Source: a virus
Length of the DNA stretch: 46,626 nucleotides
Virus record (IMG/VR): IMGVR_UViG_3300037851_000404
Coordinates: 1 to 46,626 of that record
Strand: one strand, 5' to 3'
In this document: in pieces, positions 1-46,626 of the stretch
Position numbering within the stretch: position 1 is the first letter of the stretch
Layout: every line of letters starts with the position of its first letter
Position numbers and translations under genes: made by a program
Notes under the pieces: generated by a model
Database searches by the model: none
What the model saw: the letters and a program-made list of their open reading frames with translations, nothing else
What the model was told of the DNA's origin: nothing

Positions 1-127
1 GGGCGGTGCAGAGCAACTAATGCAGATGAAATCCCTCATGATGGGATACGAGAATTGGGCAATCATCACTGACCCAATCATCCACATTGGTCCCTACACT
101 CCGGCAGTAATTCAGACTGGCCAATAC
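1..127. repeat. 127-bp terminal direct overlap, identical to 46500..46626 (circular-assembly signature)
   Basis: Read base by base. gggcggtgcagagcaactaatgcagatg...cagactggccaatac occurs at both window ends. The overlap lies inside an ORF, not in an intergenic region. Confidence 0.95.
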
Positions 128-391
128 AAGTACCGCACCTACTCAGCCAATGGCAACTACCCTCACGGCTTCGGAGTCTTAGTCTCCTACGCAGTCCTCG
201 GAGGCGAAGATGGCTACAAGCATGCTAAACTTGGAGAGCAGCAATTTACTAATCGTCACAAGATTCGCGTCGACGACTACTGGGCAAAAGCGATGGAAGT
301 TGGCAAAGCTGAACATGAATGGCTTAATGAACGCAAGAAGTACGACTACCTAGAAATTCTTTCAACTAAACCTTGGGAACAAGTTACTTAA
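1..391 (+). CDS. GT-A glycosyltransferase, C-terminal part (same gene as 45919..46626, continued across the junction)
   Basis: Frame of 45919 is continuous with the 20..391 ORF (46519 corresponds to 20). No stop until TAA at 389-391. Carries ...WGGAEQLMQMKSLMMGYENWAIITDPIIHIG... Confidence 0.8.
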   Translation, partial: GGAEQLMQMKSLMMGYENWAIITDPIIHIGPYTPAVIQTGQYKYRTYSANGNYPHGFGVLVSYAVLGGEDGYKHAKLGEQQFTNRHKIRVDDYWAKAMEVGKAEHEWLNERKKYDYLEILSTKPWEQVT

Positions 392-2379: not shown

Positions 2380-2402
2380 GATGATTAAATCATTTAAATA
2401 TC
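2380..2402. repeat. 23-bp AT-rich palindromic boundary motif, copy 2 (degenerate)
   Basis: GATGATTAAATCATTTAAATATC. Contains the ATG at 2381 and encodes the first residues MIKSFKY. Confidence 0.7.
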
Positions 2403-3964
2403 TGGTTTTTGCACTCCTTCTCTTAATAACTCCAGCTTATGCAGCTAACTACTATTTCAACCTCGCAAGTGGAAATGACACAACTGGCGATGGCACAGCT
2501 GGAAATCCCTGGAAGACCATCGACAAGTGTACTACCTCAAGGTCAGCTGGTGATGAGTGCCGCGGAGCTAAGACGGCAATCACAACTCTCTCCGGCACTC
2601 TCACCTTCACAGACGGAAGCACCAGCGTTGCGACTTCGGTTGACCAAACTGGAACCGTTGCGGCAGGTGACGTAATTGGAAAGAACTCCGGCCTTGAGGG
2701 ATGGTGGCAGGTTGCTTCACTTACTTCAACTACAATCACCTTAACTGCTCAATATTGGGGCCTTTCTGGCTCCGGAGATGCTGTAACAGGATATAGTATT
2801 GCCCCAATTACAGCAACTGAGGAATATGATCTTAACTCGTCTGGGTCAGAAGGTAATTTAATCAAGGTATCTGGTGGCTGGGACCTTGCTGGTGGTCCAA
2901 CACAGGACGGACTTACTTATGTTTCAACAGCTTATAATGGTATAGATGCAAATGCAAAAAGTTACGTTGAAGTAAGTAAATTTATCTTTCGGCCTACAAC
3001 AGGCAACTGCATGGGTGGGACAGGTACAAATATATCATTTACAGATATATTTTGTGTGGGTGGAACTTCAAGTAATCAATATGCGCTTAATTTGCATAGT
3101 TACACAACACTAACGCGATGTGTGGGAACTGGAGGTGTAGCAAGTACTTTTGTTTTTCTTGGGCCAGTGGTTGCAACAGATTGTTATAGCTTTAGTTCAG
3201 GTAATAGCTCTTCTGACTGTGGTATTGAGGCTGGATTTTCTGGTGTATACGAGAATGCAAGAGTCTATAATTCATATGGAAATGGATTCTGCTTTCCTAT
3301 AAGATCTGGCAACAACCATTTTAATGATCCTGTCTCAGTAAAAACAAGGGCAAGCTCAAATTTTTATTTCTTAGGGACAGGAAATAATTGGTTTTACAAT
3401 GCAACTGCTTCTGATGCAGCGACTTATGCGGTTCAAGTGTACACTGGTGATTGTTTCAATAATTACTTTATAGAGTCATCTTTAACAGCTGGGAGCAGTG
3501 GTTTATTTAATAATCCGGTAAGTTTTCAAAGTACACTTTTACCAGCTGCAGTTATTAAACCCCCAGGTAGTGATGCTATATATTATTATTATGATGGTAA
3601 AATAGAGCATGACTCTTCATCAGAATGCCGGTCTGGTAAATGCTTAAAATTTACTCCTACATCAGCTACTGTTCCGCTCGCCTATAAGGTTGGAAATGTA
3701 AAAATACCAAGTGCATCAAGCGATTTAACTCTTTATATCTATCTCAAGGATGATTCCAGTTTTAATGGAGTTGTTAGTTTTATTGTAGATAGGAATGGAG
3801 AATTTATATCAATAACTTACAAGACTCCAAGTACTTCGTGGGTACAGCAGTCTATTGTTGTAGGTTCAAGTGATTTAGTAGCTAATGAATATTTGGATCT
3901 TTATGTTATTGTATCTGGTACAGCTGGAAACATCTACGTTGACGACTTCAGCGCGGATCAGTAA
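2381..3964 (+). CDS. Right-handed beta-helix (pectate-lyase-like) protein with N-terminal signal peptide; candidate depolymerase or tailspike
   Basis: 527 aa. N-terminus MIKSFKYLVFALLLLITPAYA/ANYY looks like a Sec signal. SGNDTTGDGTAGNPWKTI is the typical start of parallel beta-helix proteins. Gly/Ser/Thr/Asn-rich repeats follow. Confidence 0.55.
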   Translation: MIKSFKYLVFALLLLITPAYAANYYFNLASGNDTTGDGTAGNPWKTIDKCTTSRSAGDECRGAKTAITTLSGTLTFTDGSTSVATSVDQTGTVAAGDVIGKNSGLEGWWQVASLTSTTITLTAQYWGLSGSGDAVTGYSIAPITATEEYDLNSSGSEGNLIKVSGGWDLAGGPTQDGLTYVSTAYNGIDANAKSYVEVSKFIFRPTTGNCMGGTGTNISFTDIFCVGGTSSNQYALNLHSYTTLTRCVGTGGVASTFVFLGPVVATDCYSFSSGNSSSDCGIEAGFSGVYENARVYNSYGNGFCFPIRSGNNHFNDPVSVKTRASSNFYFLGTGNNWFYNATASDAATYAVQVYTGDCFNNYFIESSLTAGSSGLFNNPVSFQSTLLPAAVIKPPGSDAIYYYYDGKIEHDSSSECRSGKCLKFTPTSATVPLAYKVGNVKIPSASSDLTLYIYLKDDSSFNGVVSFIVDRNGEFISITYKTPSTSWVQQSIVVGSSDLVANEYLDLYVIVSGTAGNIYVDDFSADQ

Positions 3965-4639
3965 ATGGCAGAAATTAAATCTGACAACTTAGATGATCAG
4001 AATTTAGGGCAGCCAGTAGTAGGCCCTCGAGACACTACCGGCTCGCTCGACGATCAACATCTTGGCCAGCCAGTTGTTGGATTTGAGTTTGGAACAACCA
4101 CTGCTCCGACAACCTTAGGAGGTACCACAAGTGCTCCTACTACGGCTCCTCCAACTACTTTGGCTCCTACTTCTCTGGCTCCTACAACACTTACTCCCTC
4201 AACAAGCGCCCCTACGACGGCAGCGCCTACGACTCCAGAGCCGACAACTCTTCCACCTACAACACCTGAGCCGACATCGCTAGCTCCCACTACCCTTGCA
4301 CCTACAACTCAAGCGCCGACTACAGGGGCGCCAACAACAGTCACTCCTACGACTCAAGCTCCGACGACACTAGCTCCAACAACTATTGCACCTACAACCT
4401 TAGCACCTACTACAGCAGTTCCAACTACATCTGTTCCAACAACAGTTCTACCTACAACACTTGGCCCGACTACCATTCTAGGCTCGACTGTTCCACCTAC
4501 TACCGAATACCCTGCATGTCCAGTAGCGGAACTATCTACAATCAATGATGAGATTCTCATCTACTCTCTCATCAAAGATGCCTGGGAAGCCGACTCACTA
4601 ATCGAGGACTCTATAACAGTCTACTCATTGGTGTGCTAA
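3965..4639 (+). CDS. Mucin-like Pro/Thr-repeat protein
   Basis: 224 aa. Residues 43-180 hold 25 x-x-P-T-[TS] pentads (APTT, VPTT, EPTT...). N-terminal duplicated LDDQ[NH]LGQPVVG and C-terminal [IV]YSL[IV] repeats. Confidence 0.7.
   Translation: MAEIKSDNLDDQNLGQPVVGPRDTTGSLDDQHLGQPVVGFEFGTTTAPTTLGGTTSAPTTAPPTTLAPTSLAPTTLTPSTSAPTTAAPTTPEPTTLPPTTPEPTSLAPTTLAPTTQAPTTGAPTTVTPTTQAPTTLAPTTIAPTTLAPTTAVPTTSVPTTVLPTTLGPTTILGSTVPPTTEYPACPVAELSTINDEILIYSLIKDAWEADSLIEDSITVYSLVC
4091..4504 (+). repeat. 15-nt-period coding repeat (x-x-Pro-Thr-Thr)x25
   Basis: GCNCCNACNACN-type units with synonymous third-position variation between units, read directly. Confidence 0.85.
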
Positions 4640-4640
4640 A

Positions 4641-4961
4641 ATGTCTGACAAAGTATTCGTAAACGATACTGTGCTACTCACACTTGCAACAGGCAAAGTG
4701 TTGAGTGGCTTCACAGACTGCAAGATAAAATTTGAAAAGCCTAATGGTGTTAGGGGACTTTGGGCATCTGCAATCCACCCCTCAAATTCCCAAGCCATTC
4801 GATCCTCTGTTTCCTTTGACCTTGCTGGAGTTTGGAAGGTCCAAGCTTTTGTATCTAAAGTGGGTGAAAAGTACCATGGAATGAAGGTCGACATAAGAGT
4901 ATTTGAACCACTTGGTCCTGATACAACTGTTCCACCCACCACAGTTCCACCAACAACTTAG
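4641..4961 (+). CDS. Small beta-sandwich-like protein with C-terminal TTVPPTTVPPTT tail
   Basis: 106 aa, starts 2 nt after the previous stop. The C-terminal Pro/Thr tract is encoded at about 4918-4958. Confidence 0.55.
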   Translation: MSDKVFVNDTVLLTLATGKVLSGFTDCKIKFEKPNGVRGLWASAIHPSNSQAIRSSVSFDLAGVWKVQAFVSKVGEKYHGMKVDIRVFEPLGPDTTVPPTTVPPTT

Positions 4962-4970
4962 GAGGATTAG

Positions 4971-5384
4971 ATGAAGAAATTAGCTTGCTTATTCATGGCT
5001 TTGTTACTCTTGACTCCACTCAACTTGATTGCTGCATCTGTTAATCAGTCAATCAAGGTTGAATGGCAGCAGGAAGCATCTGACTATCCACTGATTGCTA
5101 GCTGGACCCTTTACTGGGCTGATAGTGAAGTCGGTCCATGGCAGCCTGCTCTGACTATTGATCATGTTGGAAGTGACCCACTTAATTCTGCTCAGGGTAC
5201 TCTAACTATTATTGGAAATCCAGGGCAGTCAATTACTAAATACTTTCGCTTGACGGCATGGAGCCGAACATCAACTGGTGAAACTGCTCCTAGTAATGTC
5301 GCCCAAGCTACTTTCAAAATTCCTGATGTTGGTCCTAAGGTTCCAAGTTCCTTGACCATTCAGGTGATTATTCAAGCTCAATGA
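4971..5384 (+). CDS. Signal-peptide protein, FN3/Ig-like
   Basis: 137 aa. MKKLACLFMALLLLTPLNLIAAS looks like a Sec signal. RBS AGGAGG lies upstream. W-rich beta-strand pattern. Confidence 0.55.
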   Translation: MKKLACLFMALLLLTPLNLIAASVNQSIKVEWQQEASDYPLIASWTLYWADSEVGPWQPALTIDHVGSDPLNSAQGTLTIIGNPGQSITKYFRLTAWSRTSTGETAPSNVAQATFKIPDVGPKVPSSLTIQVIIQAQ

Positions 5385-9068: not shown

Positions 9069-9515
9069 ATGTCTCTTGAGGACAGAGGTGCTCAGCACGA
9101 CAAGGTTGTGGTCGATAAGTACCACGACCCTATCGCGAACTATGTCATGTCTACCAGGGACTACGTCATGCGCCCTACGGCGACCCCTGGTACCGGCGCA
9201 ATCACTATCACCCTCCCTCCGGTGGCTGAAGCCAAGGGCCGCTGGTACAGCATCATTGCTCGCCAGGCTGATGCTGTCAACACTATCACCATCGAAGACA
9301 ACAATGACGACAGCGAGTGCTGGATGGGAGACATTGTTCTCGATGGGAAGTGCGATCGCTGCCTGCTCTACAGCGATGGCCTCGCCTGGCATGTCATGGG
9401 GAATCCTGGTGAGTGGCCTGGCCTTAGCAGCACTCCGGCTCCTGGAACTTCTCAGGCTCCGACTACTGCTGCTCCGCAGACTACTGTCGCACCTACCACT
9501 GGGACTGGTGCATAA
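9069..9515 (+). CDS. Hypothetical capsid-module protein with C-terminal Pro/Thr tail
   Basis: 148 aa, AGGAGG RBS, GC-rich codon usage. C-terminus SSTPAPGTSQAPTTAAPQTTVAPTTGTGA. Confidence 0.6.
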   Translation: MSLEDRGAQHDKVVVDKYHDPIANYVMSTRDYVMRPTATPGTGAITITLPPVAEAKGRWYSIIARQADAVNTITIEDNNDDSECWMGDIVLDGKCDRCLLYSDGLAWHVMGNPGEWPGLSSTPAPGTSQAPTTAAPQTTVAPTTGTGA

Positions 9516-14756: not shown

Positions 14757-16451
14757 ATGGCTTGGAACCAGCCAGATAGTTTCCACATAACAGATGGGGC
14801 AGTAGCTAGCGGTGTCATAACTGATACCTACACAGACAATGGCATCAAGCATGTGTTGGAAGAAGTTACTGGCACCCCTGGGATGGACTACGAGTACTGG
14901 TTTGCCACTGTTCCAGCCTACAACTGGATCAGAGTTCATGTTAATGGTTACTATGAAGGCAATCCAGCTCATGATGTAGAGATTAGCGTCTGGAACTTTA
15001 CCTCGTCTGCATGGGATCACTTTGATACCATGTTAGATGCCTCAGCTGATGCTGATTTTTACTCACCTGATCTCCCAGGTGCTGACTACATCAGCGGTGG
15101 AGTTGTTAAGGTTAGATTTCATCATCCTGATTCTGGAAACACTTCACATAGGCTATACCTTGATGCTGTGTTGCTTGAGGATAGGTCTAGTTTTCACACC
15201 ACAGTGGCTCCGACAACTGTGCCTCCCACAACAGTGGCTCCATCAACTCCGGTTCCAACCACTACCTTAACCACTCCAGTTCCAACTACTACATTAACAA
15301 CAGCTCCGCCAACAACTCCTTGGGGCGAAGACATCTACGTCGATCCGATAGAATTAACTCTATCTAGCAAGCATGTTTTTCACTACAATCCGCCTGCTCC
15401 TGTCAATCCAGGGCTTGATCGAACTTGGACGTTTGAAGATCTTCCAATTGAAATAACTTTGTCCATTCAAGGACAGAACCAGTATGCAGGAATTCTAGTT
15501 GATCCAATCGAGATCATTATCACTCCTGTCCATTCGCAGTTTAGCGAAGGCCAAACGATTGAAGTAGATCCAATCGACCTTGTTATAGTCCCAACCTTTG
15601 ATGACATTCTTAAGTCATTCGACAGATGCAATTTTATCAAGTGGTCCAAGGTCGGAAGGTTTGACTTTACCATAGATGAAAGTAATGAAGCTGGAGAGCG
15701 TCCTGTAGATTGGAATGGATGCATCTGGCATGTGGCAAAGCTTGGATCAGCAGTAGGTGTGTACGGAACTAATGGCGTTACACTACTTAAGCCAAGTGGT
15801 GTTAACTGGGGAATGGACACTATTTATCGAATAGGGCTTAAGAACAAAGGAGCGTTTGCTGGAAGTGAGAGCAGACACTTCTTCGTTGACAACCTTGGGC
15901 AGCTATTCCAAGTTGATGAGACTTTGACTAGGCTTGACTATTCTGAATTTATCAGTAGAATGAGCACAGTTATACTTAGTCTTGACATTGAAAAGAACTT
16001 ACTCTACATCTGCGATGGAACCCTTGGATTTGTCTACAGCATTGAATCTAAAAGCTTTGGTGAAGGCCCAGTTAATGTCACGGGGTTTGGGGCTCAAAGT
16101 GGAAACATCTACGTAGTTAGCTACGGAGACATCATTACACCGAAGCTTGAAATCTGCACTGACATCTATGATTTTGAAACTAGGCGTCAGAAAACAATTA
16201 AGTCAATTGAAATAGGAACTGACTCAACTCAGTTCTTGTATGCATCGCTAGATTATCGAACTAGCTACAAAGATGACTTTAAGCAAATAGGATGGTTCTT
16301 AGTCAATCCAGATGGAAAGGCTTATCCTAAGTGCTACGGAGTTGAATTCAGATTCAGAATCAAATCTTTGATTTATGAGTATTTGGAAATAGATTATTTG
16401 AAAGTAAGAGGCCACATCCATGGCTTCTCGTATCTTGATTCAGTTGGATAG
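14757..16451 (+). CDS. Tail protein with internal Pro/Thr linker and DPIE repeats
   Basis: 564 aa. TTVAPTTVPPTTVAPSTPVPTTTLTTPVPTTTLTTAPPTTP at about 15196-15320, followed by four [VL][DP][PI][IE]...-type units (VDPIELTL, LPIEITL, VDPIEIII, VDPIDLVI). Confidence 0.55.
   Translation: MAWNQPDSFHITDGAVASGVITDTYTDNGIKHVLEEVTGTPGMDYEYWFATVPAYNWIRVHVNGYYEGNPAHDVEISVWNFTSSAWDHFDTMLDASADADFYSPDLPGADYISGGVVKVRFHHPDSGNTSHRLYLDAVLLEDRSSFHTTVAPTTVPPTTVAPSTPVPTTTLTTPVPTTTLTTAPPTTPWGEDIYVDPIELTLSSKHVFHYNPPAPVNPGLDRTWTFEDLPIEITLSIQGQNQYAGILVDPIEIIITPVHSQFSEGQTIEVDPIDLVIVPTFDDILKSFDRCNFIKWSKVGRFDFTIDESNEAGERPVDWNGCIWHVAKLGSAVGVYGTNGVTLLKPSGVNWGMDTIYRIGLKNKGAFAGSESRHFFVDNLGQLFQVDETLTRLDYSEFISRMSTVILSLDIEKNLLYICDGTLGFVYSIESKSFGEGPVNVTGFGAQSGNIYVVSYGDIITPKLEICTDIYDFETRRQKTIKSIEIGTDSTQFLYASLDYRTSYKDDFKQIGWFLVNPDGKAYPKCYGVEFRFRIKSLIYEYLEIDYLKVRGHIHGFSYLDSVG
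15196..15320 (+). repeat. Pro/Thr-coding repeat including a tandem 27-nt duplication (PVPTTTLTT x2)
   Basis: ccggttccaaccactaccttaaccact / ccagttccaactactacattaacaaca read directly; acagtggctcc also occurs twice. Confidence 0.75.
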
Positions 16452-26111: not shown

Positions 26112-26492
26112 CTATTCACCAGTCAACTGCTTGAGCAGGATAGGTTTGAGATCAGCTGGGGAGTATGATGAGGGTTTGATCCACTTTCCAAATTCATTCT
26201 TGTAGCCACCTACTTTGGACATATTAGATCGGTGGACTTCATTGAAGATCGGTTCGATGTCTATGCCGCATTCAACTGCGGTACCAAGGACTACGTAAAG
26301 CAAGTCAGCGATCCCATCTGCAATTCCAATTAGATCGCCCCTAGTCATTGCCACAATGAGTTCATCAAACTCCTCAAGGATTAGTCTGCTTCGTCTATGA
26401 ATTATTTCGTCAGTTGGTCTAGTTGGTTTGTCCTCGCAGTGGATGTCAAACGCTTTGTGGAATTCCCTTACTTTGTTTTGACTTGAGTTCAT
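26112..26492 (-). CDS. mazG: MazG-like nucleoside triphosphate pyrophosphohydrolase
   Basis: 126 aa. EEFDELIVA ... DGIADLLYVVLG, the all-alpha NTP-PPase pattern. Confidence 0.65.
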   Translation of the reverse strand: MNSSQNKVREFHKAFDIHCEDKPTRPTDEIIHRRSRLILEEFDELIVAMTRGDLIGIADGIADLLYVVLGTAVECGIDIEPIFNEVHRSNMSKVGGYKNEFGKWIKPSSYSPADLKPILLKQLTGE

Positions 26493-28983
26493 TGTAAATG
26501 GTCTCCAATCTTTCAGCTAGTTTAAACTTGTCAACTGGGAAGTCTTTGTGCTTGATCTCGATCATTTCTTCCTTGCACATATTGAAGCTGATGGATAGGT
26601 CGGCTGGAGTGTCGATTCTAGTTTCGTGCCAATAGAGTGGGCGCTCAAGTGATTGCTTGATTAGCATTAGGATTCTAGCATGTTCGATTAGTGGAAGTGA
26701 TATAGGAATTTGAAACACTATTGAGTCATGAATCTGAGCAAGAAGTTCAACTGGACGAAAGATTTCTTGGTTGTAATAGACGTATTCAAGCCCATGTTCA
26801 TTGATCTTGTCAGCGGTGGTTGATTGAGGAAGCTGGGCATATCCTTCACGCCAAGTATTCTGGCAAGCACTTAGTGGGACATTAGGATAGGAAGGTACAA
26901 CAGGGCCTAGGAACAAACGCTTTCGACCCATTAAGTTTACAACCATTCTATTTTTCTTAAGCATGTTTTGAATCAAGATGTGAAAGCCACCTCTAATTTG
27001 AGGATACCCTCGGTGGATTTTCTCGAGTGTATACTTGGCTTCACTCTCAGGCATTTCATTCTTAAGTGCAAATGTCTTATATCCAACATCGTAGTTGGTA
27101 GCGTGGTTGCCTTTCTTGCCCCAATAGCGTTCACTCTGGCGTCCGTCACCTAGGGTTGATGATCCGTCTTTGGAGGAGATTTCGTCGTAAGGCTTTCCAA
27201 AGATAATCGAAGCGGTAAGTCTATGTAAGTCAACTCCTGACTCGAAAGCCTTAATTTGCTCAATAACTCCTCCAACATATGCAACAAGCCTATTTTCGAT
27301 TTGGCTAAGGTCGAAGGAGTATCCAATATAACCCTCGTCGAATACAAAGAATCTAAGTAAATCGTGAGGCCAATTCTGTTGGTTTCCTCCAGTTCCAAAT
27401 ATAGTTTCACCAGACGAGAGTCTTCCTGTCTCAGCTCCAACAGGCTTATAGGATGATCTGTAACGTCCATCTTCGTCAACCTTTCCTATGTTAAGGTAAG
27501 TTGAAATACGCTTGGACAATGAGCGAATGTCGAGCATTAGACGAGCTGCTTCAGACCCAGGTCCGCCCTTGCGAAAGATGCGCTTGAGTGCATCAACGTC
27601 TGAGGTTTCAGTATATTGGCCTTTGGTATTTTTCTTCTTATATGGTTTTAAGCCGAGTTCTTTGTAGAAGTAATTCATCAGCTGAGCTGGCGAATTGTGA
27701 TTGATCTCGTAGCCGACTTCTCTGTTAAGTGCTTCTGTTAATTCATCAAGTTTCTTTTGCTCCTTATCTTTGAAGTCTATCATCCCTTGAACGTCAATCT
27801 TGATTCCTCTCTCAGCCATATAAATTAGTGGCTTGATTAACTTCCTCTGACGTTCGTAGGTTTCTAGATTCTCCTGCTTTATGAGTTCTTGGATTTGCTT
27901 AGGGAAAGCATCTGAGGCAGTGATAGAATCCATAGCATTGTAATGCCACCACTCGTCCCAAGAACCTGCTCCAAGTTTCATCCACTGCTTGCCGTCTTCC
28001 TTGTAGTATGGAATGTCTGTGTGCATGGAAGTTACGAATGCAAGCCCAGCGTTGAAGTCTGGATAGGAAATTTTTTGAGCTATTTGGGTGCAGTGAAGGT
28101 TGCCCCTTGGACGCATCCCATACTTGTGGAATAGAAACTGCATATCAAAGATGAAGTTTGCACCTACTTTGTTGATTTCTCTGGATTCAATAATCCTAGA
28201 GAGAAGCAATAGAATTTCGAGCTCTTGGTCGGGAGTGAAGTAGTCACCTTGAGACCATCTAAATGGTATAGAAGCTGAGTCCGTTGCTGACCATCCAACT
28301 GAGAAACAATCAACTTCTCCGTTAATGACTTCAATGTCGATAGCAATAGTTTGACCTCTTTTTCCGACCTCGAAGCAATGATCAAGGATTCCTTTGGCCT
28401 GAGTAAAAGATGGCTTAGTAATGATATTGCGAGAGATTCGATGGATCTTCTTGAATTCCCCTTCATCTTTAGCCCTCAGCAAGTCATTGACTATGAGTGG
28501 TTTGTTTAGGAAGTTGAACTTTGGAGGGATGAATGTAGCTGGGTGAAATGTAGGAATTACTTTAAGGCCTGGGACAATAGTTGATTCAATAACTGACCCA
28601 CGCCACTTGGTTATGCCAATTCTTGAGGTTAGTGCTAGGAGTGGAATGTTTCCAGTAGCAATCACAATGTTGAGGTTTGGAAGAAGGGACAACTCACGTC
28701 CGAGTTCGCGGATGTAAGTCATCCCATCTTCAGATATTGAGGACTTTCCTCGATTGTCTATTCTGATGTAATGTTCGAGAGGTGCGTCGAGATCCTTTAT
28801 CACGTTGGTGAGGTAGAGGGATTGCCTAGGGATTCTTGCCATCACTAGACATTCATCAAGACCTTGCCCAGCAGGTCCGACGAAAGGTTTTCTTGACCTA
28901 ACTTCTTGATGCCCAGGCTGTTCACCACAGATGGCTATCTTTGCAGTTAGGTCCCCAGAGGGCGGAACATAGGTTCGACGCAT
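26446..28983 (-). CDS. Family A DNA polymerase with N-terminal UDG-like (family 4/5) domain and 3'-5' exonuclease domain
   Basis: 845 aa. UDG motifs CGEQPG...PFVGPAG and FHPA. ExoI IAIDIE. Pol motif A DLSQIENRL, motif B KKGNHATNYDVG, motif C QIHDS. GGAGG RBS. Confidence 0.85.
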   Translation of the reverse strand: MRRTYVPPSGDLTAKIAICGEQPGHQEVRSRKPFVGPAGQGLDECLVMARIPRQSLYLTNVIKDLDAPLEHYIRIDNRGKSSISEDGMTYIRELGRELSLLPNLNIVIATGNIPLLALTSRIGITKWRGSVIESTIVPGLKVIPTFHPATFIPPKFNFLNKPLIVNDLLRAKDEGEFKKIHRISRNIITKPSFTQAKGILDHCFEVGKRGQTIAIDIEVINGEVDCFSVGWSATDSASIPFRWSQGDYFTPDQELEILLLLSRIIESREINKVGANFIFDMQFLFHKYGMRPRGNLHCTQIAQKISYPDFNAGLAFVTSMHTDIPYYKEDGKQWMKLGAGSWDEWWHYNAMDSITASDAFPKQIQELIKQENLETYERQRKLIKPLIYMAERGIKIDVQGMIDFKDKEQKKLDELTEALNREVGYEINHNSPAQLMNYFYKELGLKPYKKKNTKGQYTETSDVDALKRIFRKGGPGSEAARLMLDIRSLSKRISTYLNIGKVDEDGRYRSSYKPVGAETGRLSSGETIFGTGGNQQNWPHDLLRFFVFDEGYIGYSFDLSQIENRLVAYVGGVIEQIKAFESGVDLHRLTASIIFGKPYDEISSKDGSSTLGDGRQSERYWGKKGNHATNYDVGYKTFALKNEMPESEAKYTLEKIHRGYPQIRGGFHILIQNMLKKNRMVVNLMGRKRLFLGPVVPSYPNVPLSACQNTWREGYAQLPQSTTADKINEHGLEYVYYNQEIFRPVELLAQIHDSIVFQIPISLPLIEHARILMLIKQSLERPLYWHETRIDTPADLSISFNMCKEEMIEIKHKDFPVDKFKLAERLETIYNELKSKQSKGIPQSV

Positions 28984-30540: not shown

Positions 30541-30802
30541 CGTTAGCCTCCTTGCTGCGCTTGTCGGCTTCTTTCAGCGACTTGATTATGTCTCTTGGTT
30601 TAGCAGCTTGATCGAGGAGGATTCCGATGACTATTTGACCATGCTCCTCGATCAAATCAAGAAGGTCCTCAAGAATCGGAGTCATTATAGCCTTGCGAAC
30701 TCCATGAGTTGATAGCAGGACATTGGCTCGATTCTTTAGTTCCTCGCTAATTTCAAACGCAAAGCGAGGAATGTAAGGGGTGGTGTCTAGCTTGCTCATC
30801 AT
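30533..30802 (-). CDS. Hypothetical; possible ribbon-helix-helix DNA-binding protein
   Basis: 89 aa. IPRFAFEISEELKNRANVLL resembles an RHH beta-strand plus helix. Weak call. Confidence 0.3.
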   Translation of the reverse strand: MMSKLDTTPYIPRFAFEISEELKNRANVLLSTHGVRKAIMTPILEDLLDLIEEHGQIVIGILLDQAAKPRDIIKSLKEADKRSKEANDG

Positions 30803-31983
30803 CTCCTCCAGGTTGTAGTTGGCATTATTACTTCCTTGATTATTCTATCATGATATGGATAGATGGTTTTGATTAAAGTAGATATTTCTCCGCCAATGTC
30901 GGTAGTTGGGATGTAGCCGAGATCGAATAGTTTCTGATGAGCTGGGTTGTAGTAATGATTGTAGGATTCTGACCTAACATTTGGAAGGTTTTGGACTCTA
31001 GTTGAGATGCCTAGTTCAGATGAAGCTGTAATGACTTCAGATGCAAGCTGGGATATTGAGTAGATGTTTTCGAACTGGTTGAGTGTTCTGTATTCGCCAA
31101 GTTGGGGTGGATTATCTATGACGATATTAAGGCATTGGATTGAATCTTTGAGCGGCAAGTAGCCACGCGTCTGAGATCCATTGCCGTAGATTGTCAATGG
31201 AATGTTGGATAGAGATTGGACACAGAAGCGGTTGATAACTGTGCCAAAGTACTGATCGTAATCAAAGCGGGTGATTAGGTACTCGTCGTCATCTGTGGTA
31301 TTCAGACCGAAGACTACGCCCTGCATGATGTCAGTTGAGCGAAGTCCCCAGAGCTTGCAGGTGAAGATGATGTTGTGAGTGTCGTGGACTTTGGATAGGT
31401 GATAGAAGGACCAAGGGGAGCGAGGGAAAGGGAGGCCAGCCATAGGACAGTCCATAGTAGATGCATATCCATCGTAGTTGCCAAGGCATTCTGGAATCTC
31501 CCCTTCAGGAATGTCACAGTTAGGTGTCCCATACTCTCCCATTGTTCCGAGTTTGACCAAGTGAGCATTTGGACAGTGATCATGCATAGCCCAGAGGAGG
31601 GCTAAGGTTCCAGAAATATTGTGATGTTGGGTAGTGATAGCATGTCTCACGTTGACCATTGAGTAGGGTGCTGAAGGTTGCTCGGCCAAGTGGACAATTG
31701 TATCAGGCTTGTATTCCCTAAGGACTCTGGAAACCAGGTACTCATCATGAAGATTGATGAAGGCTATGGAGTCGATGAAGTTAGGGAATTTCTTAAGGTA
31801 TTCATTCCTTTGATCGTGAGACTTGATTGGGGTTAGAGAAGTACTCCCAGTTGTTTTAACTCTCAGACGTCGACTAAGATTGTCTAGTCCACAGACTTCG
31901 TATTTATCAGGTTGACGAAGCAGATGGTTAGCAAGTGCCCATCCAATATAGCCGTCTATTCCAAGAATCAGGACTCTATTCAA
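30799..31983 (-). CDS. sqdB: UDP-sulfoquinovose synthase (SQD1/SqdB)-like extended SDR
   Basis: 394 aa from TTG, with GGAGG 7 nt upstream. GIDGYIGW Rossmann motif. VKLGTMGEYGTPN, FYHLSKVHDTHN, NRFCVQS and GSQTRGYL match the SQD1 signature blocks as I recall them, including the SQD1-type Thr, Tyr-His and Lys. Confidence 0.7.
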   Translation of the reverse strand: MNRVLILGIDGYIGWALANHLLRQPDKYEVCGLDNLSRRLRVKTTGSTSLTPIKSHDQRNEYLKKFPNFIDSIAFINLHDEYLVSRVLREYKPDTIVHLAEQPSAPYSMVNVRHAITTQHHNISGTLALLWAMHDHCPNAHLVKLGTMGEYGTPNCDIPEGEIPECLGNYDGYASTMDCPMAGLPFPRSPWSFYHLSKVHDTHNIIFTCKLWGLRSTDIMQGVVFGLNTTDDDEYLITRFDYDQYFGTVINRFCVQSLSNIPLTIYGNGSQTRGYLPLKDSIQCLNIVIDNPPQLGEYRTLNQFENIYSISQLASEVITASSELGISTRVQNLPNVRSESYNHYYNPAHQKLFDLGYIPTTDIGGEISTLIKTIYPYHDRIIKEVIMPTTTWRR

Positions 31984-42280: not shown

Positions 42281-42292
42281 TAGTTGTTAGGT

Positions 42293-42315
42293 GCTAGTTG
42301 CTAGCTGCTAGTTGC
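42293..42315. repeat. Tandem heptamers (GCTAGYT)x3
   Basis: GCTAGTT GCTAGCT GCTAGTT GC, between the stop codon and the terminator. Confidence 0.6.
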
Positions 42316-42317
42316 TT

Positions 42318-43190: not shown

Positions 43191-43712
43191 ATGTCAGAGC
43201 GAACTTCATTATACGGGTTTGAGTTTAGGGAAGTCGACGAACGGAGGGTCGAGAATCGCTCTTTTGACATCAAACAGCTTTGGCAGCGATCTCATGAAAT
43301 CATTGGCTTGGCCCTCCAAGGGTTGAAACAAACTGAGATTGCAAAAATCTTAAACGTCACTCCTGCAACTGTCAGCAATACGCTCAACTCGCAGCTCGGC
43401 AAGGAGAAACTTTCTCTAATGCGCGAAGAGAAAGACGAGCACTATAAAAAGGTCAATGAGGAGATTAGAAAGCTCACTATCAAAGCTCTCGACACTTACC
43501 ACAAGCTCTTTGACTCTCCTTCCATCGACGCTGAGTTGAAAAAAGAAACTGCTGACACAGTCTTGATGGACATAGCTGGAATGCGTGCTCCGACCAAAGT
43601 CGACACTCGCACTCTCCACGCTCATGCCACGCTTGAGGAAATTCAGGAATTCAAAGAAAGAGGAATCAGAGCAGCTAGAGAAGCAGGGCTTTTGGTTGAC
43701 ATAGATGCTTAA
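43191..43712 (+). CDS. HTH DNA-binding protein (LuxR / sigma70 region 4-like); candidate regulator or small terminase
   Basis: 173 aa. GLKQTEIAKILNVTPATVSNTL helix-turn-helix motif. It is the first gene after the strong promoter. Confidence 0.5.
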   Translation: MSERTSLYGFEFREVDERRVENRSFDIKQLWQRSHEIIGLALQGLKQTEIAKILNVTPATVSNTLNSQLGKEKLSLMREEKDEHYKKVNEEIRKLTIKALDTYHKLFDSPSIDAELKKETADTVLMDIAGMRAPTKVDTRTLHAHATLEEIQEFKERGIRAAREAGLLVDIDA

Positions 43713-43738: not shown

Positions 43739-44131
43739 ATGAAAAAGCAAAGTTATCTCTTAATAGCTCTGGCAACAATCCTCTCCATTTCCTGCACTGC
43801 TTCCTTCAACAAGAATTCCTTTCGCTCCCTCGGCACAATGGCTATCACCTACGATACTGCCCTTCGCTCTGCTGCAGACCTTCACAAGCGAGGATTTATC
43901 TCAGAAGCGGGCAAGCAAAAGATCATTGAAGTCGCTAATTCCTACCAACGAGCTCATAACAACTCCGTCATTGCATTCCAGGAATACCTAACTGCACCTC
44001 CTGAAACCAAAGACTCTGCCAAGCAACACTTTATCACCCTCTCTAGAGTCGCCGTCAGTGCATATACAGAACTAATTTCAATCCTTTCTGCCAATGGCAT
44101 CTATGGCGAACCTGTCGAGCCTTGGTTCTAG
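43739..44131 (+). CDS. Signal-peptide protein, possible lipoprotein
   Basis: 130 aa. MKKQSYLLIALATILSISC, with Cys19 after a non-canonical lipobox. The mature part looks all-alpha. Confidence 0.45.
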   Translation: MKKQSYLLIALATILSISCTASFNKNSFRSLGTMAITYDTALRSAADLHKRGFISEAGKQKIIEVANSYQRAHNNSVIAFQEYLTAPPETKDSAKQHFITLSRVAVSAYTELISILSANGIYGEPVEPWF

Positions 44132-44491: not shown

Positions 44492-45328
44492 ATGATTGAC
44501 TACCTGATCACCGGAGGTAATGGATTCATAGGGAGGAACCTAACTCATTCCCTCTCTACCTCCGGTAAATCTTTCATCGTAGTCGATCTTCGCGCTAACG
44601 GCTTTGCCGTCGAATATACTTACGATGTCACTTATCAAATCCCAAGGATTCAATCCAACACTATCATCCATCTCGCTTCAGAGACCAATGTCCGAGAGTC
44701 CATCAAGCTCCCACTTCACACCTTTCGCAGAAACTGCGAAGGTGTTTTAAATTGCTTAGAAATGATCAGAGACCTAAACCTCTCATCCAGACTCATCTTC
44801 ACCTCGTCAGCAAGTTCATTCAACTCATCTTCACCCTACCTAGCATCCAAACAATCTTGTGAATCCATCTGTAAGGCCTACAAAGAATCCTTCGGCATAG
44901 ACACTCGAATCCTCAAGCTCTCCAACGTCTATGGCCCCTTCTCTGTCCACAAACACAGCGTAATCCCTAAATTCATCAAATCTTGTCTACTCTTCAAGCC
45001 ACTCCAAATCTTTGGCGATGGGACTCAGCAACGAGACTTTGTCCATGTCAGAGATGTCATCAGCTCAATCATAAACGGCCAAGAAGGATTCATCACCTCA
45101 GGCATTGGCACCAGGATCATCGACCTAGCTGAGATGATTTCTTCAATCTCAGACAAGCTCCTCAACTACCGTCCCAAAATAGTCTTCGAAAACTCCATAA
45201 GCGGAGAGGTAAAAGTCCCTAGATTCCTCTCCTCAATAACTCCCTCCATCAATCTCGAAGATGGACTACTCTCAACCTTCAAATGGTTTAAAGAGAACTA
45301 TGAAACTAAACTGCTGGTCAATGCCTGA
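44492..45328 (+). CDS. NAD-dependent sugar-nucleotide epimerase/dehydratase (extended SDR)
   Basis: 278 aa. TGGNGFIG Rossmann motif and catalytic Y-x3-K in SSPYLASK. Confidence 0.75.
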   Translation: MIDYLITGGNGFIGRNLTHSLSTSGKSFIVVDLRANGFAVEYTYDVTYQIPRIQSNTIIHLASETNVRESIKLPLHTFRRNCEGVLNCLEMIRDLNLSSRLIFTSSASSFNSSSPYLASKQSCESICKAYKESFGIDTRILKLSNVYGPFSVHKHSVIPKFIKSCLLFKPLQIFGDGTQQRDFVHVRDVISSIINGQEGFITSGIGTRIIDLAEMISSISDKLLNYRPKIVFENSISGEVKVPRFLSSITPSINLEDGLLSTFKWFKENYETKLLVNA

Positions 45329-45917
45329 AGTCAATCGTGCCGAGAGCACTTGGGGTCAAAAGACTCCTCCATACACTTTGGACATGTTCAACTTTGCAAT
45401 CACCCAGTGCAATAGTTGGCTTGACCTAGGCTGCGGCTTCGGACGATTTCTATCTTACCTCACTTCAGGCATCGAAGATCCAGACTACATCGGCTATGAC
45501 TCTTCAGATTCAATGCTGGAGCGCGTCAAAGAAAATTTCCCCCACTTCAGTCCACGAATCTTCAACCATCCTATAACCAACCCTATCACCAACATCCAAG
45601 AGTCAATCATCTGCAGCGCAGTCTTCATCCACATCACTCTCGAAGACCAGCAAAAGGTCCTAAATAACATCCTAAAAGCCAATCCGAAGCGCTTCACCTT
45701 CGACATTAACTCTCCAGCTGAATCAACTATAATCAAAACTCCCCACTTCGAACGCTTTGTGAGGGGTGCCGAGGGTGCTTTTCGCATGACTTGGCAATCT
45801 CACTACGAAATGACCAGAAAAATCCTTTCAATGTTCAAGTCTTACTCACTCTCAGTCAAATTCTACACTATCAACACCAACAGAATCAAAGCAGTTTACA
45901 TGCTCGAAAGGGCCTAA
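45300..45917 (+). CDS. Class I SAM-dependent methyltransferase
   Basis: Motif I LDLGCGFGR. Start uncertain: ATG at 45300 or 45321, while the track ORF starts at 45261 inside the epimerase gene. Confidence 0.6.
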   Translation: MKLNCWSMPEVNRAESTWGQKTPPYTLDMFNFAITQCNSWLDLGCGFGRFLSYLTSGIEDPDYIGYDSSDSMLERVKENFPHFSPRIFNHPITNPITNIQESIICSAVFIHITLEDQQKVLNNILKANPKRFTFDINSPAESTIIKTPHFERFVRGAEGAFRMTWQSHYEMTRKILSMFKSYSLSVKFYTINTNRIKAVYMLERA

Positions 45918-45918
45918 A

Positions 45919-46626
45919 TTGAAACTTTCAATCATCATCTCTAACCGCAACGACATAGTAATGCTCAATGTCACCCTCAACAATGCCATTGAGATGCTCA
46001 AGACCTTCGATGGCGGTGGTGAGATCATCATCTGTGACAATTCAGACCCTAAGTTCTACGAACTAATGCCTATCGCCTATCCTCTTGGCTGGTTAAAGCA
46101 GGGCCTAGTAAAAGTCATTCGTCAGGAAGAACCCTGTTTCACCAGTGCAAGAATGAAAGCCGCAGAACATGCTCAAGGTGAATACATCTTCTGTATTGAC
46201 TCTCATGTGCTCTTTGGTCTTAACACTCTACGCGATAGTATCTCTTTTATGGATCGCCATGCAGATAATGCCAGACTCGGTTTTGGCCATCCTCCAATAC
46301 GCTGGGCTCACCAAGGTCCAGCCGCCATCAAACATACACTTAAAATAAGCGACAAGGGCCTTCCAAATGGAGGTTGGGACTGCGCTTACAAAACCGAGCG
46401 GAAGATGTTCTGGAAATTCATGCCTTGGATCTGCAGGCGAAGTTGGTTCCTAAACACCCTCCAAGGCTACGGAACTCACGCTACATCTGGTCTTTCTTGG
46501 GGCGGTGCAGAGCAACTAATGCAGATGAAATCCCTCATGATGGGATACGAGAATTGGGCAATCATCACTGACCCAATCATCCACATTGGTCCCTACACTC
46601 CGGCAGTAATTCAGACTGGCCAATAC
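45919..46626 (+). CDS. GT-A glycosyltransferase with ppGalNAc-T-like DxH and WGG-x-E motifs (N-terminal part; continues at 1..391)
   Basis: TTG at 45919, 1 nt after the upstream stop. I translated the frame and it stays open to the window end. KLSIIISNRND, ICDNSD, CIDSH (46198-46206) and SWGGAE (46498-46512). Confidence 0.7.
   Translation, partial: MKLSIIISNRNDIVMLNVTLNNAIEMLKTFDGGGEIIICDNSDPKFYELMPIAYPLGWLKQGLVKVIRQEEPCFTSARMKAAEHAQGEYIFCIDSHVLFGLNTLRDSISFMDRHADNARLGFGHPPIRWAHQGPAAIKHTLKISDKGLPNGGWDCAYKTERKMFWKFMPWICRRSWFLNTLQGYGTHATSGLSWGGAEQLMQMKSLMMGYENWAIITDPIIHIGPYTPAVIQTGQY
46500..46626. repeat. 127-bp terminal direct overlap, identical to 1..127
   Basis: See feature 1..127. Confidence 0.95.

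Follow-up and report, generated by a model that had tools for sequence, protein, structure and literature searches.

The initiation of mucin-type O-glycosylation by GT27-like enzymes is held to be a eukaryotic trait. Among eukaryotic viruses, PBCV-1 A064R of the chloroviruses and the GT-GT-methyltransferase proteins of giant viruses build the glycans of capsid proteins, with the methyltransferase methylating the sugar. To our knowledge, virion glycosylation by phage-encoded enzymes has been demonstrated only in mycobacteriophages, where it was reportedly described by Freeman et al. in Cell Host Microbe in 2023, and we know of no GT27-like enzyme that takes part in it. The mycobacteriophage glycans decorate capsid and tail-tube subunits at their C-termini (as summarised in PMC12619734).

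The viral DNA considered here (IMG/VR record IMGVR_UViG_3300037851_000404) was analysed as one stretch of 46,626 nt, termed the window. It encodes a transferase which, as judged from alignments and a predicted model, resembles GT27 enzymes in fold and motif layout, a resemblance that by itself does not establish membership. This GT27-like fold and the co-occurrence of the transferase (GT) with PTT tails point to a sugar-coated virus particle. The most likely explanation is a variant of virion glycosylation, namely cytoplasmic O-glycosylation of PTT tracts on proteins of the structural module.

A GT-A transferase gene between terS and terL

The earlier note on this DNA had described three co-oriented, abutting genes just 5' of the gene for the large terminase subunit (terL), an arrangement borne out by the ORF coordinates and motifs: on the plus strand, the terS-terL interval contains genes for an extended-SDR epimerase, a SAM methyltransferase and a 323-aa GT-A glycosyltransferase. 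The join then given for the transferase (45919..46626 plus 1..391) had to be revised. Window bases 1..127 are identical to its last 127 (46500..46626), an overlap of the circular assembly which breaks that reading frame and without which the genome measures 46499 bp. Therefore, the transferase is encoded by 45919..46626 joined to 128..391 (972 nt, 323 aa, plus strand). This join is in frame, its product aligns with homologs over the full length, and both peptide blocks quoted earlier for the enzyme are found in it. The first segment encodes residues 1-236 with the DNS motif, D94-S-H96, WGGAE (194-198) and H222, the second the helical C-terminal part (residues 237-323). The gene starts with a TTG at 45919, 2 nt past the methyltransferase stop, and ends at 391, leaving a gap of 16 nt to terL (407..1972, plus strand); from 44308 to terL, neighboring genes abut or overlap.

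The interval is a variable island. Its upstream edge is the gene of a terS-like HTH protein of 173 aa (43191..43712, plus strand; PHROG 2538, terminase small subunit, 1.6e-5), an ortholog of which lies 5' of the island in nearly all related loci. Its downstream edge is terL, which shows 46.7% identity to the terL of Desulfofustis phage LS06-2018-MD01 in tblastn and a conservation of 45-84% among related loci. In the Desulfofustis phage, the annotated terS abuts terL directly. In the window and in most of 68 related viral loci, the transferase gene occupies the terS-terL interval on the strand of the structural genes. Its family comprises 210 clusters in a set of 5.8 billion proteins, and a single match, on a 6-kb MAG contig, was obtained in 185,579 cellular genomes. 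The family does not extend beyond a single phage lineage and a single genomic position, beside structural genes.

The Pfam and AlphaFold/Foldseek comparisons proposed in the earlier note returned a generic GT2 domain, yet ppGalNAc-Ts as the best PDB structures, with GT27-like motifs aligned. Pfam identified only PF00535 (residues 4-116); PF02709, the domain with the Gal/GalNAc-T motif, was not detected at E <= 1, and no other Pfam domain, hence no ricin-type lectin domain, was found in the 323 residues. A membrane anchor, an N-terminal extension or a hydrophobic segment is likewise absent, as the first beta strand begins the protein. In Foldseek searches of the PDB with the AF2 model (pLDDT 95.2, pTM 0.93; helical after residue 250), the top 14 matches are all ppGalNAc-Ts (E 7e-13 to 1.4e-11; query TM 0.59-0.67, rmsd 4.8-6.9, 330-354 columns), the best being ppGalNAc-T10, T2, T4, PGANT9 and TgGalNAc-T3. 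The next structural family is TarP, at a TM of about 0.5 and an rmsd of 10-11, with a gap in E-values of only about 20-fold, and uncharacterised phage GT-A models match the transferase equally well (TM 0.61-0.62).

The residues D94, S95, H96, G196 and H222 are invariant among 46 homologs, whose identity to the window protein reaches down to 45%, and W194 and G195 are at least 90% conserved in the same set. When the family profile was compared with the PDB, GalNAc-T10 (2d7i) was the sole match aligned beyond the generic N-terminal half (residues 3-223), at marginal E-values of 2e-4 to 3.6e-3. In this HMM alignment, DSH falls on DSH, sWGGae on iWGGEq and PvIH on rVGH, and hhalign of the family against a GalNAc-T10 fragment gave a probability of 89.6% (E 1.9e-6, 173 columns). 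The WGG of the transferase (194-196) aligns to the WGGE of T10 and PGANT9, with the acidic residue one position later (WGGAE/WGGGD), and the invariant H222 aligns with the His of the T10 "VGH", which we take to be a metal ligand in T10. A profile of the C-terminal two-thirds alone yielded no match in the PDB. The likeness to GT27 claimed before holds for the mapping of DSH, WGG and distal His onto GalNAc-T10 and extends to the fold, while membership in the GT27 family is not supported, in view of the marginal E-values, the undetected PF02709 and the missing lectin domain and anchor. The predicted metal-site layout, DxH plus a distal His, is like that of GT27.

At the sequence level, the best PDB matches of the family are GT2 enzymes, namely TarS (4e-7), TarP and chondroitin/heparosan synthases (K4CP), and the weak NCBIfam matches are to exopolysaccharide glycosyltransferases only. 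These matches favor an enzyme that modifies a host glycopolymer (O-antigen, capsule, a teichoic-acid-like polymer or a lipid carrier), like TarP or Gtr seroconversion, blocking superinfection or altering receptor availability; the PTT tracts would then be unmodified linkers sharing ancestry with the GT lineages. This role is rather unlikely. TarS, K4CP and TarP outscore GalNAc-T10 because of the N-terminal half of the transferase: the HMM alignments to TarS and TarP stop at about residue 117, within the generic part, and with TarP at an rmsd of 10-11 there is no likeness to the C-terminal acceptor part of these enzymes. DSH stands where TarS has DSD, and the metal motif is thus DxH plus a distal His and not the DxD of GT2 type. 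The gene lies in a late structural operon, no integrase turned up in the proteins scanned, and the near absence of the family from cellular genomes argues in the same direction.

PTT-tract proteins and their co-occurrence with the transferase

All four PT-tract proteins claimed for this genome were located, including one (9069..9515) previously given without coordinates. Among them, 9069..9515 alone has direct support as a virion-surface protein. This best-supported candidate acceptor is a conserved protein of 148 aa (9069..9515, plus strand), whose gene lies between those for the scaffold and the major capsid protein and which consists of a beta-rich domain followed by a PTT tail with the C-terminal sequence ...QAPTTAAPQTTVAPTT. 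It has 729 homologs; among the best 120 of these, 116 carry PTT in a tail of 13-61 aa and one is tail-less. In the AF2 model, residues 21-110 reach a pLDDT of 88-96 and the tail about 43-55 (predicted disordered). Foldseek matches to tailspike N-terminal domains and to the Pa223 capsid spike make it a candidate capsid spike or decoration protein.

Two further candidate acceptors are encoded by accessory genes. A protein of 224 aa (3965..4639, plus strand) is built almost entirely from (A/P)PTT(L/V/x) pentapeptide repeats (22 PTT, 59 Thr, 35 Pro) and belongs to no PHROG family, with a weak Extensin_1 match as its only Pfam result. Its BLAST relatives are found in many GT+ loci, where they are located 3' of terL, between the transferase gene and terL, or adjoining the transferase gene, and in none of the evaluable GT- loci. 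A protein of 106 aa (4641..4961, plus strand) has the C-terminal tail TTVPPTTVPPTT; its homologs, most of them with PTT tails, occur in 16 GT+ lineages and in zero GT- lineages. The fourth candidate is a fiber-like protein of 564 aa (14757..16451, plus strand) in the distal, putative tail, structural block, for which no PHROG or Pfam family was found. It contains the internal PT linker TTVAPTTVPPTTVAPSTPVPTTTLTTPVPTTTLTT (about residues 157-190), and its P+T content reaches up to 0.73 per 30-aa window. The DNA of the PTT repeats is degenerate (66-81% matches); therefore, the repeat is conserved as a peptide and does not result from recent slippage. Within the repeats, Pro is found at +3 for 49% and at -1 for 41% of the Thr residues. 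These are positions preferred by ppGalNAc-Ts.

The strongest new evidence in this analysis is the co-occurrence of the transferase with PTT tracts in related phages, which the earlier note had suggested examining. A PTT tail is present on the 148-aa ortholog in 13/18 GT+ versus 0/11 GT- lineages (Fisher p = 1.3e-4, uncorrected for phylogeny). Similarly, a long PT tract, scored when an ORF at a distance of up to about 10 kb reaches 60% P+T or more over 30 aa, was identified in 8/13 GT+ versus 0/12 GT- lineages (p = 0.0016, again uncorrected for phylogeny). In L062, L064, L090 and L046, a PT-tract ORF directly adjoins the transferase gene. GT+ and GT- lineages interleave in a terL NJ tree, with most GT- lineages in one part. 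That the statistics ignore phylogeny is a point for the modification of a host glycopolymer, as are the other GT2s in the same terS-terL island of GT- relatives free of PTT tails. Since a radical-SAM-GT fusion and methyltransferases accompany GT2s in this island of GT- relatives, it could serve another target. Against this role stands the observation that the same ortholog is PTT-tailed with the transferase and devoid of PTT without it.

The association has exceptions: the 148-aa protein is without PTT in 5/18 GT+ lineages, the region seen of some deep-branching GT+ loci is free of PT tracts, and a long PT tract is absent from the sequence seen in 5/13 GT+ lineages. The first two of these would fit glycosylation of virion proteins away from PTT, with the major capsid protein or a different tail as possible sites, the PTT tracts as spacers and an indirect link to the enzyme. 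The mycobacteriophage glycans at capsid and tail-tube C-termini provide a precedent (as summarised in PMC12619734). Such a displacement of the glycosylation sites is unlikely, however, as it is specifically PTT or poly-Thr tracts that the transferase associates with, up to direct gene adjacency, a GT27-like fold suits disordered Thr/Pro-rich acceptors, and no further shared feature was seen to separate GT+ from GT- lineages.

Accompanying sugar enzymes

The epimerase-like extended SDR (44492..45328, plus strand; 278 aa) matches PF01370 (1.9e-40) and phrog_540, a nucleotide-sugar epimerase family. It exhibits the GxxGxxG NAD site and the Ser/Thr-YxxxK triad of extended SDRs, in the forms GGNGFIG and S...YLASK; as read from its sequence, it carries SSAS...YLASK and lacks the Asp/Glu typical of 4,6-dehydratases. 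The best PDB match is 6dnt, with UXS, RmlB and GalE close behind (all E 1e-17 to 1e-16), and because the latter three score alike, the comparison does not tell epimerase, decarboxylase and reductase apart. The protein is a putative supplier of a C4-epimer UDP-sugar. The class I SAM methyltransferase (45261..45917, plus strand; at most 218 aa) matches Methyltransf_12/25/11 (5e-9 to 4e-6) and contains the LDLGCGFGR noticed earlier, which includes the class I motif I LDLGCGFG; its PDB comparison was uninformative. The longest ORF overlaps the epimerase gene by 68 nt, and the true start is probably one of the internal ATGs at 45300 and 45321. It is a putative sugar methyltransferase.

The idea of a fixed three-gene cassette did not survive the comparison of loci. 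Only the close relatives of the window have the epimerase and methyltransferase alongside the transferase, the epimerase being found in 17/68 GT loci; elsewhere, extra glycosyltransferases or a B12-radical-SAM-GT fusion replace them. Both are optional, swappable parts of the island. A fusion of B12-rSAM, GT2 and rhamnosyltransferase-like parts adjoins the transferase gene in 23 loci. Homologs of the transferase are themselves found fused to a methyltransferase, which may come first (MT-GT in P0104/P0105) or last (GT-MT in P0136), and GT-GT(-GT) fusions also exist. In the relative L115, the island carries a methylmalonyl-CoA mutase as metabolic cargo. The replication module of the window encodes a homolog of UDP-sulfoquinovose synthase (SQD1; 30799..31983, minus strand; 1.2e-106 to Arabidopsis SQD1, 1i24), which scores 451 bits over the full length of NF041015, below the curated cut-off of 575 bits. 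It is present on 22 viral contigs, 9 of them known GT+ contigs (7/8 contigs of at least 36 kb), and is a possible extra donor-sugar enzyme whose link to the cassette is correlative only.

Viral nucleotide-sugar genes, including UDP-sulfoquinovose synthase, have been read as auxiliary metabolic genes (PMC7785012). Together with the mutase cargo of L115, this would be compatible with the synthesis of a free or lipid-linked methylated oligosaccharide or a small-molecule glycoside unrelated to virion proteins, a very unlikely function as it predicts no tie to PTT tails and the family is limited to one phage lineage and one position beside structural genes. Hardly credible is a hypermodification of the phage DNA with sugars against restriction, as in T-even phages and others with glycosylated hydroxymethyl-pyrimidines: phage glycosyltransferases are generally known to be often DNA-modifying (Pyle et al., 2024, as cited in PMC12619734) and genes for a dCMP deaminase and a DNA methylase are present, but the replication-module ORFs of at least 200 aa yielded no thymidylate-synthase-like hydroxymethylase (all but one match unrelated families; the 291-aa ORF 40993..41871 matches nothing), the cassette belongs to the late structural operon and not to the nucleotide-metabolism module, and the PTT co-variation would be left unexplained.

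Proposed mechanism and comparison with known systems

The genes, the modeled fold, the invariant triad and the way it aligns with GalNAc-T10, the place in the operon, the existence of MT-GT fusions and the GT/PTT co-variation argue for what we consider the probable explanation, a soluble cytoplasmic phage polypeptide O-glycosyltransferase with a GT27-like fold and metal site that sugar-coats PTT-bearing virion proteins. Late in infection, the transferase would be transcribed together with terS, terL and the structural genes and would bind a UDP-sugar and a divalent metal via D94, H96 and H222. A first sugar would be transferred, putatively with anomeric retention, to Thr hydroxyls of disordered (A/P)PTT(L/V/A) repeats in the spike-like tail of 9069..9515, the accessory proteins 3965..4639 and 4641..4961 and the fiber linker of 14757..16451. 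In this genome, the adjacent SDR may provide the C4-epimer nucleotide sugar and the adjacent methyltransferase may methylate the sugar; in relatives, other glycosyltransferases and the B12-radical-SAM enzyme would substitute for them and extend the glycan. The outcome would be a mucin-like glycan brush covering the virion surface, with a putative role in protection, shielding or adhesion.

A more far-reaching version is doubtful, though conceivable. One phage lineage with SU10-like capsid and portal genes might possess a true evolutionary relative of GT27 that acts in the cytoplasm and builds dense methylated, possibly sulfoquinovose-containing, mucin-like virion brushes. The C-terminus of the capsid spike would then be a swappable "glyco-tag" matched to the enzyme set (PTT with the GT27-like enzyme, "GYDY" in relatives with other GT2/radical-SAM enzymes in this island).

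A phage particle sugar-coated via PTT-repeat tails would be of a kind not previously described for phages. If the proposed explanation is true, mucin-like glycoprotein biology would extend to bacterial viruses through a soluble, lectin-free 323-aa enzyme of GT27 layout. Being compact, this enzyme would be a candidate tool of glyco-engineering for attaching O-glycans to a short peptide tag in the bacterial cytoplasm, and it would give studies of GT27 origins a new outgroup from prokaryotic viruses. The finding offers a testable hypothesis on the shielding or anchoring of environmental phage particles, made tractable by a family that is large, yet belongs to one phage lineage with natural GT+/GT- contrasts.

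Among known systems, the S. aureus wall-teichoic-acid GlcNAc transferases TarS and TarP (GT2; 5tze, 6h1j) are closest in the sequence of the N-terminal nucleotide-binding half, and TarP is also prophage-encoded. They differ in their DxD motif, compared with DxH and His here, in their acceptor, a ribitol-phosphate polymer, and in trimerisation or acceptor domains of their own that are absent from the phage transferase. In bacterial O-glycosylation, GalT1 of serine-rich-repeat adhesins (5hea) and Listeria GmaR, both among the weak PDB sequence matches of the transferase, are soluble GT-A enzymes that modify Ser/Thr of proteins in the cytoplasm. However, they are enzymes of cells and not of viruses, act on Ser-rich repeats or folded flagellin, and resemble the transferase only in the N-terminal GT2 core. 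The chlorovirus and giant-virus enzymes are likewise virus-encoded, cytoplasmic and free of host glycosylation machinery, and their GT-methyltransferase fusions are analogous to the MT-GT, GT-MT and GT-GT fusions described here; they belong to eukaryotic viruses, are unrelated in GT sequence and make atypical N-linked glycans on the major capsid protein, with no mucin-like repeat acceptors.

With the mycobacteriophages, this system would share phage-encoded glycosyltransferases, glycosylated C-terminal regions of virion surface subunits and a proposed shielding, and the association of glycosyltransferase genes with structural genes that marks such systems is seen here between terS and terL on the structural strand. 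Mycobacteriophages are siphoviruses of actinobacterial hosts whose acceptors have no tandem PTT repeats, whereas the tracts described here are on a separate spike-like protein and on accessory repeat proteins. In comparison with GT27 (human GalNAc-T10, 2d7i; T2, 2ffu; T4, 5nqa; Toxoplasma GalNAc-T3, 6s24), the phage transferase is only 14-18% identical, has no ricin-type lectin domain, membrane anchor or secretory-pathway location, carries the acidic residue after WGG shifted by one (WGGAE/WGGGD versus WGGEN) and a family-specific helical C-terminal extension (about residues 250-320), and is phage-encoded with a putative action in the bacterial cytoplasm. Nevertheless, the GT-A catalytic domain of GT27 is its best structural match, the DxH, WGG-acid and distal His motifs align, and its predicted acceptors are Thr residues in disordered, tandem Pro/Thr-rich repeats with Pro enriched at +3 and -1.

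Gene order across the genome junction

Bases 1..127 of the window are identical to 46500..46626, and this exact 127-bp terminal duplication is most simply an overlap left by the assembler on a circular or circularly permuted genome, whose true length is 46499 bp once the overlap is removed. Consequently, all junction-spanning coordinates are shifted. The plus strand carries a tightly packed gene run that leads from a terS-like HTH gene (43191..43712; PHROG terminase small subunit) through three small ORFs to the genes of an extended-SDR enzyme of 278 aa (44492..45328), a SAM methyltransferase (45261..45917), a glycosyltransferase (GT; 45919..46626 joined to 128..391) and finally terL (407..1972). 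The earlier note had described a cassette of epimerase, methyltransferase and GT genes ahead of terL; all motifs quoted for it are present, but with the terminal duplication in place the GT join given there, 45919..46626 plus 1..391, runs out of frame. The corrected join yields a protein of 323 aa that aligns end to end with its homologs. Four proteins with Pro/Thr-rich (PT) tracts were confirmed in the window as well: a 224-aa protein (3965..4639), a 106-aa protein (4641..4961), a fibre-like protein of 564 aa (14757..16451) and a spike-like protein of 148 aa, first reported without coordinates and now located at 9069..9515.

Judged by its sequence, the 44492..45328 product looks like an epimerase. 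It hits PF01370 at 1.9e-40 and a PHROG annotated as “nucleotide-sugar epimerase,” and it is regarded as epimerase-like because its triad region, SSAS…YLASK, lacks the Asp/Glu of 4,6-dehydratases. In PDB comparisons, UDP-glucuronate decarboxylases, RmlB and GalE score alike and no single reaction is picked out. The methyltransferase is a generic class I enzyme for which searches of PDB and NCBIfam returned no substrate-specific match. A full-length homolog of the UDP-sulfoquinovose synthase SQD1 is encoded in the replication module beside a dCMP deaminase (30799..31983, minus strand). It scores 1.2e-106 against the Arabidopsis structure 1i24, and its 451 bits with NCBIfam NF041015 fall short of that model's cut-off of 575 bits. 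Of the 22 viral contigs that carry the gene, nine are known to carry the GT (7/8 among contigs of at least 36 kb), and the enzyme could provide the glycosylation system with a sulfo-sugar donor.

Three further features of the genome were recorded. A 7-bp tandem repeat, TAGTTGC, is present in about five copies at 42281..42316, in the intergenic stretch separating the early and late modules, which point in opposite directions; it could serve in regulation or as an origin. In the family A DNA polymerase (26446..28983, minus strand), an N-terminal domain of the uracil-DNA-glycosylase superfamily (PF03167, 2.6e-15) is fused to the exonuclease and polymerase domains. Signal-peptide-like or lipobox-like N-termini (MIKSFKYLVFALLLLITPAYA, MKKLACLFMALLLLTPLNLIA, MKKQSYLLIALATILSISC) can be read in the proteins 2381..3964, 4971..5384 and 43739..44131, in or near the structural block, and on this reading of the residues alone these products may be exported accessory proteins and not virion parts.

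The glycosyltransferase and its family

The GT was proposed to resemble the polypeptide GalNAc-transferases (ppGalNAc-Ts) of CAZy family GT27. Its AlphaFold model has very high confidence (pLDDT 95.2), and the solved structures that match it best are the ppGalNAc-Ts T10, T2, T4, T7 and T12, Drosophila PGANT9 and Toxoplasma T3, with E values of 7e-13 and up and query TM scores of 0.59-0.67 over 330-354 columns. The next structural family, prophage TarP, superposes poorly (TM about 0.5, rmsd 10-11). When the GT profile was compared with PDB, the alignment extended through residue 223 only with GalNAc-T10. Against T10, the DSH of the GT lines up with DSH, its WGG with WGGE and its H222 with the His of “VGH”; in GT27, these are the Mn2+ ligands and the Gal/GalNAc-T motif. 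Within the GT family itself, N41-S42, D94-S95-H96, G196 and H222 are invariant among 46 aligned sequences, and W194 and G195 are at least 90% conserved. Aligned by hhalign, the family profile matches the T10 fragment with a probability of 89.6% and an E value of 1.9e-6 over 173 columns.

Other searches set bounds on this assignment. Pfam assigns PF00535 alone (residues 4-116) and does not detect PF02709, and the acidic residue after WGG is displaced by one position relative to GT27. Neither a lectin domain nor a membrane anchor is found in the GT. In sequence searches, TarS, chondroitin synthase and TarP outscore T10 through the generic N-terminal half of the protein. Single-sequence phmmer against PDB gave a non-significant TarS match and nothing else, a profile of the C-terminal two-thirds gave no PDB match, and a BFVD fold search returned only unannotated phage GT-A models. 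The proposed likeness to GT27 is partly supported, with DSH, WGG and the distal His aligned to T10 and ppGalNAc-Ts as the top structures, while the generic Pfam assignment and the better sequence scores of the teichoic-acid enzymes TarS and TarP speak against a firm family placement. From sequence and model, the GT is assigned a GT27 fold and active-site layout, short of established GT27 membership. An activity on envelope glycans, as in the teichoic-acid enzymes, is less well supported.

Neither the GT nor the PT-tract proteins belong to any PHROG family, and tblastn with the GT against 50,697 GenBank phage records gave no match. The GT family is nonetheless large, comprising 210 clusters in a set of 5.8 billion proteins; only 68 representative clusters occur among 1.84 billion representative proteins, and the family is therefore compact and self-contained. 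Among 185,579 cellular genomes scanned, the one match lay on a 6-kb contig assigned to a MAG and offered no clue to a host; the family appears to be phage-restricted. IMG/VR holds 68 GT loci, many on contigs of 36-52 kb and the remainder on fragments, and at least 512 contigs with a related terL. In these relatives the GT gene is almost always flanked by a terS-like gene and terL and shares the strand of the structural genes. The terS-terL interval is a variable island whose length ranges from 0 to 9.5 kb; in Desulfofustis phage LS06-2018-MD01, the closest phage in GenBank (terL 46.7% identical), terS abuts terL and the island is absent. Even distant GT members (27-35% identity) keep the terS-GT-terL setting with an SU10-type portal adjacent; the few kb covered around them hold no PT tract and do not include the region of the spike-like gene.

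The arrangement of epimerase, methyltransferase and GT is limited to closer relatives of the window. Elsewhere, the GT occurs alone, as a tandem duplicate or followed by an epimerase or GT4-like protein, and at 23 loci by a 965-aa protein in which a B12-binding radical-SAM domain is fused to a GT2 and a rhamnosyltransferase-like domain. Fusions of the types MT-GT, GT-MT and GT-GT(-GT), where MT is a methyltransferase, are found within the GT family and couple methylation and additional glycosyl transfer to one and the same pathway. In relatives without the GT, the same island holds GT2s, a radical-SAM-GT fusion and methyltransferases, and the island, taken together, may not be confined to a single target. 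One such relative, L115, encodes a full-length methylmalonyl-CoA mutase in the island (2538..4079; PF01642, 1.3e-147), a B12-dependent cargo unusual for such a phage.

Pro/Thr tracts as candidate acceptors

Co-occurrence of the GT with PTT proteins in related phages, which the earlier note had put forward for checking, was borne out. Lineages were defined as terL clusters at 97% identity or more and kept if at least 8 kb upstream and 5 kb downstream of terL were seen, and a PT tract was scored as an ORF with at least 60% Pro+Thr within 30 aa. Such an ORF was present in 8/13 GT-positive and 0/12 GT-negative lineages (Fisher p = 0.0016, uncorrected for phylogeny), or in 14/21 against 0/12 when the upstream requirement was relaxed for GT-positive lineages only. 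In a neighbour-joining tree of terL, the two kinds of lineage interleave; most GT-negative ones lie in one part. The 106-aa PTT-tailed protein was found in GT-positive lineages only. Some GT-positive lineages show no visible PTT tract; glycosylation at other virion sites is the less well supported reading.

The tracts consist of pentapeptides, (A/P)PTT(L/V/x), that are strikingly uniform. At two divergent GT-positive loci, long and near-pure poly-Thr/Ser tracts take their place (L046 15993..16742 and L090 7702..10185; up to 97% Pro+Thr in 30 aa) beside a GT gene of the same family, and at these two and two other divergent loci, L062 and L064, the GT gene is the immediate neighbour of the PT-tract gene. 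At the DNA level the repeats are degenerate (66-81% matches), indicating that the periodicity is kept at the peptide level. Pro is located at +3 of 49% and at -1 of 41% of the repeat Thr residues, and both positions are favoured by ppGalNAc-Ts.

The 148-aa protein, a single ortholog, allows the most stringent test of the association. It is a conserved core gene product with 729 homologs, and its gene is flanked by those for the scaffold and the SU10-type major capsid protein. Among its best 120 homologs, 116 carry PTT within a C-terminal tail of 13-61 aa (pattern STTAPPGTT…PTT…APTT) and one has no tail. At terL-anchored loci, the tail of the ortholog contains PTT in 13/18 GT-positive and 0/11 GT-negative lineages (p = 1.3e-4, likewise uncorrected for phylogeny), the 13 including four scored negative by the coarse PT scan. 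Most GT-negative orthologs stop right after the domain or end in a short “GYDY…” tail. The AlphaFold model comprises a beta domain (residues 21-110, pLDDT 88-96), which resembles phage tailspike N-terminal domains and the Pseudomonas phage Pa223 capsid spike, and a disordered tail. Among the PT-tract proteins, this one alone has structural support, from its model, as a putative virion-surface component.

A “GYDY(D/T/V)Y” tail replaces the PTT repeats in GT-negative L086, L088, L093, L106, L115, L122, L133 and others, whose islands hold a B12-radical-SAM and GT2 fusion, tandem GT2s and methyltransferases. This may be an alternative pairing of tag and enzyme.

Proposed pathway and known virion glycosylation

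Two independent computational lines, active-site and fold similarity on the one hand and comparative co-variation on the other, make O-glycosylation of the PTT tracts by a GT27-like enzyme the best-supported reading, in which acceptor, sugar, stereochemistry, methyltransferase substrate and biological role are predictions. In this model, the GT, cytoplasmic and expressed late, would start O-glycosylation on Thr of disordered PTT tracts in structural-module proteins; the epimerase would feed the donor-sugar pool and the methyltransferase would cap the sugar, while in relatives other GTs and the radical-SAM enzyme would elaborate the glycan. Set against these two lines, an auxiliary metabolic role of the cassette is less well supported. 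DNA glycosylation is unlikely, as no hydroxymethylase was found among replication-module ORFs of at least 200 aa, one of which, of 291 aa, matched no family. The predicted glycosylation of PTT tracts is directly testable.

In giant viruses, methylated glycans of the capsid are made by GT-GT-MT fusion proteins. In phages, virion glycosylation is documented in mycobacteriophages, where the C-termini of capsid and tail-tube proteins carry the glycans (summary in PMC12619734). In the literature searched, neither a GT27-like enzyme nor mucin-type glycosylation was connected with phages. Therefore, what is new here within virus-encoded virion glycosylation would be the predicted combination of a GT27-like initiating enzyme with mucin-like tandem-repeat acceptors.
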